Source of the DNA: an uncultured Gemmatimonadales bacterium
GTDB taxonomy: Bacteria > Gemmatimonadota > Gemmatimonadetes > Gemmatimonadales > GWC2-71-9
Reading direction: 5' to 3'
DNA length: 64,000 bases
Assembly: GCA_963836815.1 (NCBI GenBank)
Contig: CAWILD010000012.1
Span: 691,298-755,297, forward strand
Shown: positions 2,241-30,374 of the stretch, piece by piece
How positions within the stretch are numbered: the stretch's first letter is position 1
Layout: each line of letters begins with the position of its first letter
The notes under the pieces: model-generated
Database searches by the model: none
The model's input: only the letters and a program-made list of their open reading frames with translations
Told to the model about the DNA's origin: nothing
Program-made: the position numbers and the translations under genes

Positions 2241-3349
2241 CTGCACTTAGCCCACCGGCCTCCGCTCCGGTGTGGGGACTTCTCTGGGGACTTTCTCCCG
2301 CGGACCCGCTCTACTTTCACCAGCCGCAGCATCACCGGCTCGCCAACCAGCTGCTCCAGCGCGGCCGCATCCTCCCGCAGATAGGCACGCACTTCCCGCA
2401 TCCGCTTGTAGAGCGCGTTCAGATCCTTCGGCCCATGCGCCATGTAGTAGTCCTGGCGGAACTGCGGGATGCGGGCGAGGTCGAGCCACTGCGCGTAGGT
2501 CCGCCGGAGATCATAGGGGTTACCGTGTCGCCGCTCGTGCGTCCGGAGGCGGCGGTAAAAGGCGAGCCGCCCGGTCGCCGGCTTCACCAGAATGCCGACC
2601 CGTGGCACCACGCGATCGGCGCCGGGCTCTTCGTGCCATGGATCCGGACCCGTCGGGCTCGACGCTCCAGCGGTTCCCGATCTCCTCGAACATCTCTTCG
2701 GGCCGCATCCCGGTGAGGCAGAACGCCCAGAGGGTCCGGGCGTGATGCGGCTGCCAGCGTCGCCGCGAGCGCCTTCGCCTGCTCCACGGTGAGCGGATTG
2801 AACGGGCAGCCGCCGCTCCTTCGGCAGCTTGAGCGGGCGCACCCGCTTGCAGGCGAGCCGAGCCAGTGCCGCTCGCCGAGCACCGCATGGACGAAGGCCA
2901 GGAGCGCCGCCGCGGTCCTTGTTGAAGGTCCGCGCCCGGACACCGAGCGACGCCTTCCGGTGCGTCGCCGAGCAGGGCGGGAAGATCGGTGAAGGTCGCC
3001 TCCTGGCGCGAGCCTGCGAGACGGGTCCACGCCTCGCCGTAGTCGCGCGCGGGTGCGCGGCGGCGATCTCCTTTTGCGTCGAGCCACTCGTCCACGCGGT
3101 GCTAGCGGGCGCATCAGGTCGCCGGTCGGCAACTCGTGGAGCTTCCCTTGGCGGTACTGCTCGTACACCTGCATCACGCGTCACGCGGTTCGCCTTCAGA
3201 TCGCGGAGCACATCGAGGCGGCCAACCTGGTAGAGGGTGCGCAACATCTGCTTCATGGCATCGCGGGTCTGGCGGCGCATGGTCCCGCTCCGCACGTGCA
3301 GCCTGCCGATGCCCTTGAACTGCAGATCAATGGGGAGCGAGCCGGTCAT
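2231..3349 (-). CDS. int: Tyrosine recombinase/integrase (frameshifted in the assembly)
   Basis: LTGMRPEE (catalytic Arg), YDLRRTYA (HxxR-type box) and MAHG...ALY across frames; points towards the tRNA. Confidence 0.85.
2271..2292 (+). repeat. Integrase arm-type direct repeat TGGGGACT x2
   Basis: TGTGGGGACT-TCTCTGGGGACT about 30 bp 3' of the tRNA; same motif at 18572-18592 and 18770-18791. Confidence 0.65.
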
Positions 3350-11779: not shown

Positions 11780-12320
11780 GGCCATGAACCCGGTCCCGCT
11801 ACGCGCTCTGGTGTGTGCTGGCGCACGGTGGGCTCCGACCGAGCGAGGCGCTCCGGCTCACGTGGCGTGAGGTGGGGGCCGATCACGTGACCGTCCGAGG
11901 CGAGACCAAAACTCACACGGGCTGCCGGACGGTGACGCTCCCCGCCAGCACGATGGAGGCGCTCCAGTGGCACCGGACCCGGCAGGAGGCGGAGAAGATC
12001 ACCGCCGGGGCCAGCTACCACGACCGGGGGCTCGTGTTCGCCTCGGCAGACCGGCGGGCCGCTCGACCTGAAGAACGCGACGGCGCGGCACTTCAAGCCG
12101 CTGCTCACGGCGTACTACCCGCTGCCGGAACTCCGGGTCTACGACCTCCGGCACACGCACGTGACGCACCTGCTCGGCGGCTGGCACGCCGGTGCACGTG
12201 GTGGCGAAGCGGGTGGGCACGCGAGCGCCAAGATGACGCTCGACGTGTATGGCACGTGCTGAGCGGGCAGGACGGCGACGCGGTGCGAACTGGAGGCGTA
12301 CTCGGGGCGGAGACCGGTAT
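11780..12320 (+). pseudogene. Tyrosine integrase C-terminal remnant
   Basis: GLRPSEALRLTW, TKT..RTVTLP, YDLRHTH and GHASAKMTLDVYGH across frames; N-terminus absent. Confidence 0.8.
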
Positions 12321-12450
12321 GAGCGGGGATAACACGCGGGGTCAGGTTTCCTAAGCTTCTCTTCATGTACACGCTCTAGCGTCTCCTTGTACACGCCAGT
12401 AGCTTTCTCCTTTGCCTGCCGCTCCCCCATCTCACCTGCGGTAGGGCACT

Positions 12451-12570
12451 CCTTTCGACAAAGGCACACCCGGCGAAAGCCGGGGCCGCAAAGCCACGGG
12501 TCCTCGCCTCCTCCGCGACGCCGCACTGTTGACGCCACGAAGGACCCTAAGACCGCCGAGCTGCCGAAGG
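12451..12570 (+). ncRNA. c-di-GMP-I (GEMM-I) riboswitch variant, copy 1
   Basis: GGCACACC-CGGC-GAAA-GCCG-GGGCCGCAAAGCCACGGGTC...GACCGCCGAGCTGCC; P1 CCTTTCG/CGAAGG. Confidence 0.8.
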
Positions 12571-15897: not shown

Positions 15898-16026
15898 CCC
15901 TCGACAAAGGCACACCCGGCGAAAGCCGGGGCCGCAAAGCCACGGGTCCTCGCCGCCCTCCGCGACGCCGCACGGGTTACCCCCGCCTGACGCCACGAAG
16001 GACTCCATGACCGCCGAGCTGCCGAA
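15898..16026 (+). ncRNA. c-di-GMP-I riboswitch variant, copy 2
   Basis: Near-identical core to copy 1; TTGACA promoter element at 15859. Confidence 0.8.
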
Positions 16027-17879: not shown

Positions 17880-18268
17880 TTACCCGGGGATCACAAAAGC
17901 GTCGCGGGCGACGAGCTCGCGGCCATTCGACGGGGCTCGAAACGTCGGCATCACCGCCACTGGCGGGTAGACTTCAGCGCGGGCCTCGGCCTCGCTGTAG
18001 CTCATGCCGCCGTAGCGCCCCAACACATCGGCTGCTCGTATCCGGTCCGCGTTCGACACATCGGGCAGCTTGCCGCGCACAATCGCCCGCAGCACCGGAA
18101 TCGCGGCCTCGAAGCCCTGCATGCAGGCTTCGCGTATCGCGGATTTCGGACGGCCACTGCGTCCCGGCTTGCCGCCCAGTTCCCCGGATTCCCCGGCACG
18201 ATCGCCGCGCCGCCTTGCGGGGGACGAACGCGACGGGTCGGGTTTTTAGCCGGGTTTTTTCGCGCCAT
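17880..18268 (-). CDS. Second TerS-like protein (DUF5681-type GNP motif; frameshifted)
   Basis: GNPGN.GGKPGRSGRPKS followed by DRIRAADVLGRYG. Confidence 0.5.
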
Positions 18269-18571: not shown

Positions 18572-18791
18572 TGCGGGACTTTCCGTGGGACTCGGGCCGA
18601 GATACGGCGGGGCACGGCGGGCCATACGGGGGAGTGGGCCGGGGCATCGCGAGGCACCGGGACGCACGCTCCCTTGTGCGCCGCCATAGCCAAGGCTCTT
18701 TTAATCCCTAGGTCGTGGGTTCGAGCCCCACCGCCCTCATAACGACTTACGAGTTGGGGCGTCTCCGCCTGTGGGGACTTCTGTGGGGACT
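18572..18791 (+). other. att junction: tRNA-Lys(TTT) 3' half (18698-18739) with arm-type repeats on both sides
   Basis: CTTTTAA-TCCCTAGGTC-GTGGGTTCGAGCCCCAC-CGCCCTCA; GGGACT direct repeats at 18572-18592 and 18770-18791. Confidence 0.75.
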
Positions 18792-18808: not shown

Positions 18809-18940
18809 ATGGGAACCCGTTCCAAGAACAACCCGCCGCGGCGACAGGGGCCAAAGCCCCAGCGCCCAATCCTACCATTGGGTGCCGTCGCATTGACTCT
18901 CAAGAAGGCCCCACCAAAGAAGAAGGGCCGGGGGAAGTAG
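18809..18940 (+). CDS. Possible 43-aa basic peptide
   Basis: MGTRSKNNPPRRQGPKPQRPILPLGAVALTLKKAPPKKKGRGK; ends in the terminator; no clear RBS. Confidence 0.3.
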   Translation: MGTRSKNNPPRRQGPKPQRPILPLGAVALTLKKAPPKKKGRGK

Positions 18941-18952
18941 CCCCCGGCCCTT
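18923..18952. terminator. Intrinsic terminator, probably bidirectional
   Basis: AAGGGCCGGGGG-AAGTAG-CCCCCGGCCCTT perfect 12-bp stem with T-rich tails. Confidence 0.75.
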
Positions 18953-18977
18953 TCACTTGTTCAGCCTGCCGCGGGGA

Positions 18978-19061
18978 TCACCCGCAGGTGCAGGCGCTGG
19001 TCCCGCAGCAACACCCGGTGTCGCAGCACCCCTTGGTGCAGCCGCAAGTGGTCTCCTTCAT
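18978..19061 (-). CDS. Metallothionein-like Cys-rich microprotein (27 aa, 9 Cys)
   Basis: MKETTCGCTKGCCDTGCCCGTSACTCG*; GGAGG 5 nt before ATG; promoter upstream and terminator downstream. Confidence 0.75.
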   Translation of the reverse strand: MKETTCGCTKGCCDTGCCCGTSACTCG

Positions 19062-19099
19062 TCTGGCCTCCCTACGGGGCTGGGCAGCTCCGCACTCCG

Positions 19100-19128
19100 A
19101 AGATATGGTTCAAGAAGTCCGCTATCAA
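19100..19128 (-). promoter_or_regulatory. Sigma70-type promoter for the Cys-rich gene
   Basis: TTGATA-N17-TATCTT on the minus strand. Confidence 0.55.
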
Positions 19129-19181: not shown

Positions 19182-19403
19182 GTGAAGCTGCGCGTGCCGG
19201 ATCTGATGAAGCAGGCGGACATGACCGCCTATCGGCTGGCCGCCGAGAGCAGGGGCCGGATCAGCCAGCGGACGGCATACCGCCCCTCCGTGGGCGAGAA
19301 GGAATCGGTGCGGCTTGAGGAACTGGCGGCGCTCTGCGACGTGTTCGGACTCACGGGCGTGGGCGAGCTGGTTGAGCTGCGGCAGGGGCGAAGGGCGGGA
19401 TGA
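19182..19403 (+). CDS. Cro/XRE HTH repressor, second copy
   Basis: Close paralogue of 8530-8754. Confidence 0.75.
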   Translation: MKLRVPDLMKQADMTAYRLAAESRGRISQRTAYRPSVGEKESVRLEELAALCDVFGLTGVGELVELRQGRRAG

Positions 19404-23954: not shown

Positions 23955-24200
23955 TTACGGTTTGGTCCCGATGGACCGCACCTTCCGCGTCTCGCTCACC
24001 GCAGCCAACATGGTCGCGTCATCAGTCTGCGTGTAGCACCGGAGGAGGGTGGCCGTCGAGCGCCAGCCGCCGGCCTCGGCCACATCCTTGAGGGGGAGGT
24101 GTTTCCTGGCCGTCGCCCAGGCGCGGCGGTAGGCGTGGAAGTCGCTGCCGTCGAGCGGGGCAAGCGCCGCCGCGGCATCGGGATACTCACCGATCTGGAG
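23955..24200 (-). pseudogene. Tyrosine integrase C-terminal remnant facing the tRNA-Ala fragment
   Basis: FHAYRRAWAT...AGGWRS..TLLRCY. Confidence 0.75.
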
Positions 24201-24415
24201 ACTACTGAGGCGGACTCCGCGGGAAACGAGGCCATGAGTTGAGCAGAGGGGCAGGGAAGGGAACGGACTCACCCGGACGCTGTGGGAAAGGGCGTGCTCG
24301 GAATTTGGGCGCTGAGACCTATACGAAACGGGGGCACGCGGTGAAGGTCGAGGGTCCCCTGCACTAAGGTATTGCTTGCCCGCGGCGGTACCACTCCCTA
24401 TCTCTGCCTTACCAT

Positions 24416-24546
24416 CCCTTTCGACAAAGGCACACCCGGCAAAAGCCGGGGCCGCCAAGCCACGGGTCCTCGCCTCCTCCGCGACGCCGCACGGTAACCC
24501 CGCCAGACGCCCCGAAGGACCCCCACGACCGCCGAGCTGCCGAAGG
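24416..24546 (+). ncRNA. c-di-GMP-I riboswitch variant, copy 3 (partly degenerate)
   Basis: Same core; tetraloop GAAA changed to AAAA and junction GCAAAG changed to GCCAAG. Confidence 0.7.
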
Positions 24547-28344: not shown

Positions 28345-28842
28345 TCATGGCCCGGATCCGGACCGTGCCTCGCGATCACTCGCGGTCGCCTGGGGTATGC
28401 CGCCGGCCTCAAAGGGTTGAGCGCCGCCACGCGAGAGTAGTTCCGCGACGGCGACCCGGAGTTCCTCGGCCGTGAACGGCTCGCGCAGGATCGGCACATC
28501 GGGGGGCAGCCGGCTTTCGATCTCGGGCGTGGAGCGGCCGGCGTTGGCGAGGTACATGACCGGCAGGGTGGGCTGTTGATGGCGCAGCTGGCGGATCAGG
28601 TCGATTCCGGCCACACCATGCACTCTGGTATTGCTGACGACGAGGTGGCACTCGTCCAGTGCGAAGGCCAGTTCGACGGCGGAGAGGCCGTCATAGGCGT
28701 GAAATACCGCGTGGCCGTCGTCCCGCAGCGTCTGGGTCACAAGCGCGACCACGCTGGGGTCCTCGTCGGCAACAAGGATGTGTCGGCAGTTAAAGGCGGG
28801 GGAGGGGGAGTGCTCATGGCGAACCTTGGACCCGGGAGACAT
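28345..28842 (-). CDS. Aspartate-less single-domain receiver
   Basis: ILVADED...VVSNTRV (D to N)...LREPF (K to E). Confidence 0.8.
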   Translation of the reverse strand: MSPGSKVRHEHSPSPAFNCRHILVADEDPSVVALVTQTLRDDGHAVFHAYDGLSAVELAFALDECHLVVSNTRVHGVAGIDLIRQLRHQQPTLPVMYLANAGRSTPEIESRLPPDVPILREPFTAEELRVAVAELLSRGGAQPFEAGGIPQATASDREARSGSGP

Positions 28843-29341: not shown

Positions 29342-29761
29342 CTATGCCGTTTCCTTTGAGCCTCGGGTGTCGCGACGCCGGAGCCCGAGCAAGCGATGGA
29401 CGGTGGTTCGAAGTACCTCCGGTGCATACGCATTCGGCGTCATGGGATGGACGGATGCACCATGGGGGGTCGGGGGGGCCTGCGTGGAGAAGAAGAGCAG
29501 CGGCGGATGATGTTGTGCGCGAGCCAGATTCTCGAGTAAGGCGTGCCCCTCGAGATAGGTCACGGTGATGTTCGTGATGATAAGATCGACCGGAAGGTCA
29601 AGCCCCATTACAAGGCTGATCGCGGTCCGGCAGTCTCGTGCTGCCAGCACGCGGCACCCGTCCTGGTGCAGCGTATCAGTCAGGCCCGATCGGACGCCTT
29701 CATCGCCTTCGACAATGACGACGAGGGGTCGGTCCGACGGAAGTAGGGAGCCGTGCGCCAT
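29342..29761 (-). CDS. Degenerate aspartate-less receiver
   Basis: VVIVEGD...VDLIITNI (D to N); no KP motif. Confidence 0.65.
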   Translation of the reverse strand: MAHGSLLPSDRPLVVIVEGDEGVRSGLTDTLHQDGCRVLAARDCRTAISLVMGLDLPVDLIITNITVTYLEGHALLENLARAQHHPPLLFFSTQAPPTPHGASVHPMTPNAYAPEVLRTTVHRLLGLRRRDTRGSKETA

Positions 29762-29996
29762 GTATCCACTCGCCACGACGGAGCATCTATTTGAGGCAGG
29801 GCCCTTACACTGGCACACGTGCTGCCGACCGTCAAGGGGGTGAAGTCGTCAACCAGGACCCGCACCACGTTCTTGACAGCCTAAGCGCCACCCCGTAGTT
29901 CTGCTACAATCTTTCCCCTGCGTTCCGTGGGCCAATACTGAGATGCGGATGGATGGCGAACACGAGTTGCCTGCCTCCGCCTAAACCGAAGATCTC

Positions 29997-30374
29997 ATGA
30001 CTTTGGGGCAGTCGCGTAAGCAGACGGTGTTGCTGGTAGAGGACGACGCAATGCTCCGCAGCATCTTGGCACAGACGCTGGCTGACGAGGGCTACGCTGT
30101 CCTCACGGCGGAGGACGGCGAACCGGCCTTGGCCATCGCCAGCACGTTGGAGGGACAACTTGGCCTTGTCGTGACCGACATCCGGCTGCCCGGCATGAAC
30201 GGCTTGGAACTCGCCGACCACCTTGCCTGCCTCGAGGCTCCACCTCCCGTCCTGTTCATCTCGGGCGTTAAAGCTGACCAGAACGTGTCCGGTCCACTGT
30301 TGGCCAAGCCGTTCGGGCCGAGTGCCTTCCTCGAGCAAGTTGCCCGCCTGCTTCCGCGGGCTCAGCATCACTAG
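29997..30374 (+). CDS. Single-domain response regulator (canonical)
   Basis: LVEDD, VTDIRLPGMNG, ISG, KPF. Confidence 0.88.
   Translation: MTLGQSRKQTVLLVEDDAMLRSILAQTLADEGYAVLTAEDGEPALAIASTLEGQLGLVVTDIRLPGMNGLELADHLACLEAPPPVLFISGVKADQNVSGPLLAKPFGPSAFLEQVARLLPRAQHH

Follow-up and report, generated by a model that had tools for sequence, protein, structure and literature searches.

The stretch of DNA analysed here (64,000 nucleotides from an uncultured Gemmatimonadales bacterium, hereafter the window) carries on its minus strand a very short open reading frame in which one residue in three is a cysteine. Does this frame encode a genuine peptide and, if so, what might the peptide do? An earlier note, made from the letters of the window, had described it as an unannotated metallothionein-like gene forming a complete transcription unit, possibly the founder of a new bacterial family and carried as island cargo next to an att site. 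These proposals were examined by comparing the locus with other genomes of the genus and of the phylum, with species genomes at large and with metagenome contigs.

A nine-cysteine open reading frame and its transcription signals

The frame was found exactly where it had been placed, with the 27 residues and nine cysteines ascribed to it: it occupies positions 18978..19061 of the minus strand, comprises 27 codons from an ATG start to a TGA stop, and encodes MKETTCGCTKGCCDTGCCCGTSACTCG. Between the upstream stop codon and this ATG, there is no alternative in-frame start codon. The peptide consists of five variable N-terminal residues followed by a 22-residue core, CGCTKGCCDTGCCCGTSACTCG; the cysteines (9/27 residues, 33%) are spaced C-x-C-x3-CC-x3-CCC-x4-C-x-C, and the members of the family described below have 25–28 residues. 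The features of the locus, the last two given as context only, are the following:

19128-19123 and 19105-19100, minus strand: promoter-like site, TTGATA and TATCTT separated by a 17-nt spacer; the sole such site between positions 18000 and 20000 of the window on both strands (mean of 0.1 in shuffles)
19073..19094, minus strand: predicted 5' leader stem-loop, 8 pairs with one internal mismatch, ending just before the Shine-Dalgarno sequence
19067..19072, minus strand: Shine-Dalgarno sequence GGGAGG, 5 nt before the ATG
18978..19061, minus strand: gene of 27 codons with a TGA stop, conserved in 17 of the 103 genomes of the genus
18913..18952, minus strand: intrinsic terminator; stem 18952-18923, 12 pairs (10 G-C), followed by the T-rich tail CTTCTTT
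19182..19403, plus strand: divergent gene for a Cro/C1-type HTH protein, 73 aa, GTG start (Pfam HTH_26, E 6.2e-8, 33.2 bits for a cut-off of 22)
18698..18741, plus strand: att-like remnant, 44 nt with 100% identity to the 3' end of tRNA-Lys(UUU), about 180 nt beyond the terminator

The genome of the window (4.52 Mb, 68.1% GC) contains 27,615 open reading frames of 15–60 aa, just two of which have at least nine cysteines. The 27-aa frame is the densest in Cys of the whole set (9/27), and the other of the two is an Arg/Ser-rich frame of a type that arises in GC-rich DNA. The CxC, CC and CCC patterns and the lack of aromatic residues and histidine, both remarked on in the earlier note, extend to the relatives: the 34 distinct core peptides are all free of aromatic residues and histidine, and a single Phe, in the metagenome copy L068, lies in the variable N-terminus. 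As the peptide has neither a signal sequence nor a hydrophobic stretch, it should be cytoplasmic.

The ribosome-binding site that had been proposed corresponds to the GGGAGG located 5 nt before the ATG, and each of the 17 genome copies has GGAGG, AGGAG or GGGAGG at this position. The proposed TTGATA-N17-TATCTT promoter was borne out in part. The site is the only one of its kind in 2 kb; moreover, 42 of 49 distinct loci have a TAnnTT hexamer 51–67 nt ahead of their first Cys codon, compared with 4% of shuffles. The remaining seven carry, on reading, TAnnnT variants at the -10 place, and a TTGnnn is found 16–18 nt upstream of the TAnnTT in 15 of the 42. However, an E. coli-type promoter rule, which the site of the window passes, is satisfied by just 2 of the 49 related loci, and the promoter reading is therefore founded on the recurring TAnnTT motif and not on the consensus. 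The promoter spacers are unconserved among the loci, which have no obvious operator.

An uninterrupted stem of at least 6 bp that ends within 8 nt of the Shine-Dalgarno sequence occurs in 41 of the 49 distinct loci (19% of shuffles). These stems are built from 39 different arm pairs, such as GCGGGGC/GCCCCGC, GGCGGG/CCCGCC and GTGGGGGT/GCTCCCAC. As their position and complementarity are kept while their sequence changes, an RNA structure fits better than a protein-binding site. Folding z-scores of the leaders (45 nt, single-sequence) were modest, ranging from -2.6 to +0.4, with the copy of the window (+0.44) no better than shuffles, and RNAalifold returned no consensus structure from a MAFFT alignment of the leaders. 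Taken together, these predictions are suggestive, and not proof, of a conserved 5' RNA hairpin in the leader.

Downstream of the gene, the 12-bp terminator described earlier was recovered as a 12-pair stem. Of 51 distinct loci, 27 have a stem and T-run of this kind no more than 110 nt downstream, compared with 6% of shuffles. At the DNA level, the window resembles each of the other loci only over positions 18914-19081, from the leader hairpin to the terminator. By these signals, the gene reads as a monocistronic, self-contained unit with its own -10 box, 5' hairpin, Shine-Dalgarno sequence and terminator. This agrees with the complete transcription unit claimed at the outset: the similarity stops at the hairpin and at the terminator, and the -10 box, the hairpin and the terminator all recur.

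A new gene family confined to one genus

Six-frame searches with the peptide returned copies at E <= 1.7e-6 in 17 of the 103 genomes of one genus of uncultured Gemmatimonadales, one of the carriers (G121) being an unpublished genome; among the genomes of the genus that are at least 90% complete, 9 of 46 carry the gene. Every carrier, the genome of the window included, has a single copy, in which the same start, stop and nine cysteines are kept. The search of 401 genomes across the phylum gave five matches, all of them within the same genus, and none in the 377 genomes representing the 146 other genera. We also screened 185,579 species genomes (one genome per species) with a degenerate DNA pattern for the core motif GCCDTGCCCGT: it matched 16 stretches, all 16 bearing titles of Gemmatimonadales or Gemmatimonadota metagenome-assembled genomes, and it was found in no other lineage of this collection and on no viral contig. 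The looser pattern applied to metagenomes retrieved 62 contigs, of which 38 carry the complete small gene; we did not count the other 24, of which one (L080) is a truncated copy and 23 are unrelated, being low-complexity or long-ORF matches. The search for homologues in Gemmatimonadota and metagenome-assembled genomes, which the earlier note had put forward as a check, yielded in this way 17 of the 103 genomes of the genus and 38 metagenome contigs. The gene is confined to one genus and is single-copy.

Among sequencing runs, the matches listed comprised no RNA run and 20 DNA entries from 12 studies, six of them with half or more of the sampled words; no weight is placed on them as regards expression or habitat. 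Weak protein matches outside the genus (E 0.04–1, in other families) proved on reading to be Cys-rich off-frame noise with no trace of the motif, and a 65-aa secreted Cys-rich protein that shares GCCDxGCCCG, with one relative only on record, has no link to the gene.

Searches of Pfam, NCBIfam and PDB sequences with the peptide gave no match, even at E <= 10, and the 43-aa open frame of the window shared no words with proteins of 23–2000 aa in a collection of 5.8 billion proteins. Because there is no match in the protein collection, in Pfam, in NCBIfam or in the PDB, the gene has never been called and lies outside any described family. The literature, judged by titles and abstracts, contained neither the motif string nor any description of the peptide under metallothionein and Gemmatimonadetes, bacterial metallothionein families or unannotated small ORFs. 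That the gene is unannotated, with no protein on record, is borne out by these searches, and the new family that had been suggested is well supported at the sequence level.

How is this family constrained? In all 17 genome copies, the Shine-Dalgarno sequence, the reading frame and the stop are intact; one copy starts with GTG and the others with ATG. Of the 21 core codons, 5 vary at the first position, 5 at the second and 20 at the third, and 16 residues are invariant: 9 Cys, 4 Gly, 1 Asp and 2 Thr. The conservation of the cysteines and a dN/dS-type comparison, two checks that had been proposed for the gene, gave clear answers: the nine cysteines are invariant in 17/17 genome copies, and the mean pairwise pS of 0.68 (near saturation) and pN of 0.07 yield a pN/pS of 0.10, as under purifying selection. 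Omitting the unpublished genome gives 0.11, and bringing in the metagenome copies (45 distinct sequences in all) gives 0.12; for the metagenome set, the search pattern itself had fixed ten residues. Copies were gathered by similarity to a short query, which misses divergent ones, so the invariance is partly a matter of ascertainment. Outside the core, the N-terminal 3–6 residues differ in number and in sequence, and the last Cys can be followed freely by G, R, Q, D or N, or by nothing at all. In two of the metagenome copies, one residue is missing between the first Cys groups. These data indicate a translated gene under strong purifying selection, its translation in vivo being read from the pattern of codon changes.

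GC-rich DNA yields many open frames, which reach 261 aa around the copies, and the frame is absent from protein collections, as might be expected of a chance ORF within a conserved small RNA or repeat element. We regard this explanation as extremely improbable. Since intact frames accompany third-position changes in 16 further species, a non-coding element cannot account for the pattern; the concentration of variation at third positions (5, 5 and 20 of 21), the 16 invariant residues and the retention of start, Shine-Dalgarno sequence and stop in 17/17 genome copies all argue against it. A repeat is further disfavoured by the presence of one copy per genome, by the absence of the motif from viral contigs and by the occurrence of flanking direct repeats in just 3 of the 17 loci. 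The scarcity of such direct repeats, with no notable inverted repeats either, also led us to reject the idea of a mobile cassette with terminal repeats.

Chromosomal neighbourhoods of the gene

Compared over 3 kb on each side, the 17 genome loci represent 14 unrelated neighbourhoods, the only syntenic groups being G032 with G031, and G040 with G034 and G035. One neighbourhood has the gene divergent from rpmJ-rpsM and convergent with genes for a 138-aa secreted protein and pyrF; another has an AsnC regulator and an EamA transporter on one side and an M1 peptidase on the other; further copies adjoin rpsA, dapD-like and UPF0047 genes, or response regulators. The 38 metagenome contigs provide additional contexts.

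The association with an island and an att site applies to the genome of the window. There, GC content falls to 0.60–0.655 across 12–38 kb of the window, compared with 0.681 for the genome, and the low-GC stretch holds a SNF2 helicase fragment together with weak integrase fragments, whose scores of 18.6 and 20.5 bits do not reach the cut-off (27.1). The 44-nt att-like stretch matches two sites on another contig of the same genome (C8:78242-78285 and C8:83838-83881), and ARAGORN detected no tRNA at 18698..18741. The divergent HTH gene has no counterpart at the other loci and no similarity to the flanks of any of them. This part of the earlier claim stands, through the tRNA-Lys copy, the low GC and the integrase and SNF2 fragments; it does not extend to the other 16 genomes, in which the gene lies in 13 other neighbourhoods, several of them housekeeping. 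The island and att context is a property of the genome of the window only, not a family trait.

Neighbouring ORFs around 55 loci (126 + 38 + 106 = 270) were scanned with Pfam after a GC3 filter that may have dropped genes. No partner gene recurs beside the peptide gene at these 55 loci. Likewise, the 17 genomes and the metagenome contigs show no recurrent neighbour that is a metal-sensing regulator or a metal transporter, and no cysteine or sulfur-assimilation gene lies downstream in the neighbourhoods examined. Metal- or thiol-linked neighbours do occur, each in one lineage only, and are anecdotal: a GDCCVxC-domain gene adjoining the peptide gene in G040 (67.5 bits for a cut-off of 40), a heavy-metal P1B ATPase 3–5 kb off in G054 (386 bits for 346), an ArsR/SufR-like regulator directly upstream in G115, a divergent thioredoxin-reductase-like gene in G134, a gene of the PpoB2 copper-chaperone family 1.2 kb off in the unpublished G121, and a chromate transporter adjoining the gene on L100. 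A shared regulator was considered and rejected, as homology between the ArsR-like neighbours of L056 and L096 is limited to the HTH. The gene is without a fixed partner.

Function of the peptide

Metallothioneins are recognized operationally by small size, Cys-rich motifs (CxC, CC, CxxC-type), few or no aromatic residues and no histidine. The peptide has a low mass, is Cys-rich (nine thiols in 22 residues) with CxC, CC and CCC motifs, and lacks histidine and, in its core, aromatic residues. The likeliest reading, to which we assign a probability of about one in two, is that of a minimal single-cluster metal-thiolate peptide, i.e., a metallothionein; the assignment is plausible and is drawn entirely from composition and cysteine pattern. 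No homology was detected at E <= 10 to the metallothionein families of Pfam or NCBIfam, nor to solved structures. None of the 103 genomes of the genus has a SmtA/BmtA-type protein (PF02069) over the cut-off, the Synechococcus elongatus control being positive, so the metallothionein niche would be open in this genus. As no metal regulator or transporter recurs, the spacers are unconserved and no operator is apparent, metal-induced expression is unsupported. What counts against a simple 'thiol sponge' is that no metal regulator or operator recurs and that six non-Cys residues never change although synonymous divergence is near saturation. In most metallothioneins, the positions other than Cys are freer to drift, and the invariant residues could therefore point to a specific partner or enzyme; the constraint on Gly, Asp and Thr seems greater than thiolate ligation alone would obviously need.

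A more detailed version of the metallothionein reading is tentative, and we give it slightly less than even odds: the peptide may represent a genus-specific new family of minimal bacterial metallothioneins (25–28 residues, 9 Cys, one cluster), encoded by a hairpin-capped monocistronic mini-mRNA that has moved between many chromosomal sites, with an invariant Gly-Asp-Thr scaffold that would make it, in place of a generic thiol sponge, a peptide of defined fold and metal preference. The mechanism that we propose for the main reading is as follows. A short mRNA of about 150 nt, monocistronic (for a unit of about 165 nt), would start a few bases after the TAnnTT -10 box, carry the 5' stem-loop cap and the strong Shine-Dalgarno sequence, and end at the intrinsic terminator. 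With such a start, the hairpin would lie at the extreme 5' end of the mRNA, a location at which hairpins protect mRNAs from 5'-end-dependent decay. The product would be a cytoplasmic peptide of 26–28 residues, whose nine invariant thiols would enclose soft metal ions in a single metal-thiolate cluster with, by analogy, a capacity of about three divalent ions or four to six Cu(I). Turns would be fixed by the invariant Gly, Asp and Thr, and the Asp may add a ligand. In this manner, cytoplasmic Cu, Zn, Cd or a thiophilic metalloid would be buffered or sequestered. We infer where the mRNA begins, that the peptide binds metal and in what stoichiometry, and its physiological role.

The fungal copper metallothioneins of the Neurospora crassa type have about 25 residues and seven Cys, are rich in Cys, Gly, Ser and Thr, contain CxC and neither aromatic residues nor histidine, and have a fold that is thought to need the Cu(I)-thiolate cluster. 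The peptide can be likened to them, from their general description, in length, in its single small domain, in composition, in CxC and in the lack of aromatic residues and histidine. It differs in having nine Cys against seven, in its CC and CCC runs and in being bacterial and restricted to one genus, and no sequence relationship is expected. The beta-domain of vertebrate metallothionein, which has nine Cys and forms M(II)3Cys9 with three divalent ions or about six Cu(I), likewise places nine thiolates in about 30 residues and is our model for the proposed stoichiometry; however, it is one of two domains and has a different Cys spacing, and the peptide has no Pfam match at E <= 10. In its mode of action, the peptide would by analogy come closest to a lone beta-domain and to the short copper thioneins of fungi; it is a member of neither.

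Among bacterial proteins, those of the SmtA/BmtA family are about twice as long, use histidine and adopt a zinc-finger-like fold. The peptide shares with SmtA, BmtA and PmtA a bacterial origin and a richness in Cys; in contrast to them, it has no match (E <= 10) to their profile (PF02069, Metallothio_Pro) and no histidine that might serve as a ligand. MymT, the copper metallothionein of Mycobacterium tuberculosis, is lineage-restricted, about twice as long and was overlooked by annotation. It is the nearest precedent in kind, as a small, lineage-restricted, Cys-rich bacterial peptide; no similarity between the two was detected, the peptide having no NCBIfam or Pfam match. According to PMC7387436, SmtA and MymT are the two functionally studied bacterial metallothioneins, and SmtA has a divergently transcribed repressor. 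A small divergent HTH gene is also seen in the window, but it is of the Cro/C1 type and not ArsR/SmtB, and is unique to its own genome.

Could the cysteines serve another purpose? The peptide might be a thiol-rich micro-protein with a different role: a redox or electrophile buffer, a persulfide or polysulfide carrier, a scaffold for Fe-S or another cofactor, or a tuner of a specific larger protein. This possibility, the main rival, which we consider less probable but take seriously, draws on the same support for a real gene (17/103 genomes, pN/pS 0.10); the invariant G, D and T between the Cys groups suggest a defined surface or fold, the thioredoxin-reductase-like gene is divergent from the peptide gene in one lineage, and no metal regulator recurs beside the gene. 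What weakens it is that no candidate partner recurs at the 55 loci and that vicinal CC and CCC groups typically belong to metal-thiolate clusters or to Hg- or As-binding sites and not to Fe-S ligands. The sequence by itself fits such a role and a metallothionein alike. A further idea is that the peptide is the precursor, or the nearly leaderless core, of a RiPP (a thiol-derived metallophore, or a lanthipeptide-like product formed from its Thr/Ser and Cys) matured by enzymes encoded elsewhere. The invariant core is indeed rich in Cys and Thr/Ser, very short precursors such as PqqA and MftA exist, and in one lineage (metagenome contigs L094 and L117) the gene precedes, on its own strand, an unknown 135-aa ORF and then an Asp/Asn beta-hydroxylase (186 bits), the single lead to a modifying enzyme; the peptide has an invariant Asp. 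Yet radical-SAM, YcaO, LanB/C/M and DUF692 families are all missing from the 270 GC3-filtered neighbour ORFs of the 55 loci, and the gene of L094 is separated from the next ORF by its own terminator and a 230-nt gap. The 3–6 variable residues ahead of the first Cys are not enough for a recognition leader, and 0–1 residue follows the last; no leader or follower peptide and no adjacent modifying enzyme was found. Most RiPP families show the opposite of a variable N-terminus with an invariant core, and the neighbourhoods differ (14 among the 17 genomes). The low rank that the earlier note had given to a RiPP precursor, for want of maturases nearby, was upheld over these loci, and we too think this origin improbable.

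The nine Cys codons out of 27, followed by a terminator hairpin, also bring to mind a cysteine-sensing leader peptide, in which ribosome stalling on Cys codons, when Cys-tRNA is scarce, alters the termination or translation of a downstream gene. There is a precedent: the abstract of bioRxiv 10.1101/834739 describes mycobacterial polycysteine sORFs as leaderless first genes of cysteine-metabolism operons that act via ribosome stalling. Like those sORFs, the frame studied here is short, unannotated and dense in Cys codons; unlike them, it has a leader, a Shine-Dalgarno sequence, its own terminator and conserved non-Cys residues, with no consistent downstream gene. In most contexts, what lies downstream is a convergent or an unrelated gene (the 138-aa secreted protein and pyrF, a response regulator, an M1 peptidase about 640 nt off, a cobalamin adenosyltransferase), and across the 14 contexts no co-directional cysteine or sulfur gene was seen. 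Conservation is not limited to regulatory codons: Gly, Asp and Thr are kept as residues through synonymous change, and a stalling tract needs none of them. We consider attenuation of this kind most unlikely.

Because it has fewer than 30 codons, a strongly selected gene was missed here by every gene caller and protein database; genes of this sort can be recovered by comparative codon analysis of raw sequence. If the metallothionein reading is right, the peptide is, to our knowledge, about half the size of any bacterial metallothionein. With 27 residues and nine thiols, it should be easy to synthesize and its chemistry is directly testable. Should it bind no metal, its invariant non-Cys residues would point to a partner or to a modification. 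If it does bind metal, it might find use as a compact metal-binding tag, and this family from the Gemmatimonadota, which are common in soils and barely studied, would be a third or fourth unrelated lineage of bacterial metallothioneins, and the smallest of them.

Low-GC surroundings of the peptide gene

The GC content between window positions 12000 and 38000 is 0.60–0.655, against 0.681 for the genome, and this stretch resembles a patchwork of degenerate mobile DNA. Besides fragments of integrase and helicase genes, several short receiver-domain-like ORFs, judged by their translations alone, were found in it:

Window 11815–12351, + strand: tyrosine-integrase fragment (weak)
Window 19556–~19860, + strand: SNF2 helicase fragment
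Window 23958–24458, − strand: tyrosine-integrase fragment (weak)
Window 28345–28842 (− strand), 29342–29818 (− strand) and 29997–30374 (+ strand): examples of the receiver-domain-like ORFs

Three c-di-GMP-I-type riboswitch aptamers, all scoring above the gathering scores, occur in a 12-kb stretch inside the window, each 5' of a small gene:

Window 12454–12569, + strand: aptamer 1 (68.6 bits), upstream of a SnoaL-like protein gene
Window 15899–16026, + strand: aptamer 2 (48.8 bits), upstream of the gene for a 196-aa protein
Window 24419–24544, + strand: aptamer 3 (38.1 bits), upstream of the gene for a 141-aa protein of unknown family

Two copies resembling aptamer 2 (79–81% identity) are present in the same-genus genome G039, at most 1.5 kb from its peptide gene (L024 6482–6612 and 7560–7685).

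Repeats and att-like sequences

A 44-nt copy of the 3' end of tRNA-Lys(UUU) is located at window 18698–18741. The identical 44 nt are found twice on C8, another contig of the same genome (78242–78285 and 83838–83881): one copy is at the tRNA-Lys(UUU) gene and the other lies beyond it, 5.6 kb away, an arrangement that looks like an integrated element. Downstream of the tRNA-Phe gene of the window (2271–2292), and again downstream of the tRNA-Lys fragment (18770–18791), stands a 22-nt motif, TGTGGGGACTTCT.TGGGGACT, possibly an att or integrase-arm feature common to the two sites.

Direct repeats flank the peptide-gene unit, ~70–220 nt on each side of the gene, in loci L005 (G039) and L011 (genome G035), and also in L006 (genome G043): (i) 16 bp (GTAACGTTGAGAATGG, three copies), (ii) 25 bp and (iii) 37 bp with one mismatch. 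In a subset of other loci (L004, L010, L086, L091, L098, L110 and L120), related CTCA..GTTAC words overlie the −35 region. They could serve as an operator or as an alternative −35 element, or they could be a relic of the way in which the unit moves.

Cys-rich neighbours and a longer Cys-rich ORF

In genome G040, a GDCCVxC-domain gene (L023 7729–7941, + strand; NCBIfam NF041374, 67.5 bits) sits between the peptide gene and the following gene; its N-terminal CPxCG portion falls in a different frame, owing to a frameshift or an assembly error. In genome G115 (L056 5929–6549, + strand) and in the corresponding metagenome contigs L076, L088, L090 and L115, the peptide gene is immediately preceded by a co-directional winged-helix gene. 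The 207-aa product has weak SufR/ArsR-type matches and a Cys-rich C-terminal part (GYGCP...C...ECC...C); it is possibly a thiol- or metal-sensing regulator, and such a gene adjoins the peptide gene in the G115 lineage only.

An identical 65-aa ORF, without Pfam domain and with a single relative on record (73% identity), is carried by three metagenome contigs:

L066 1620–1811, − strand
L083 710–901, + strand
L103 1267–1461, + strand

It has a Shine–Dalgarno sequence, a terminator and an N-terminus resembling a signal peptide. The mature part, with ~20 Cys, contains GCCDGGCCCG, a near-match to the core motif GCCDTGCCCGT of the 27-aa peptide; this ORF may be a secreted counterpart or a convergent form.
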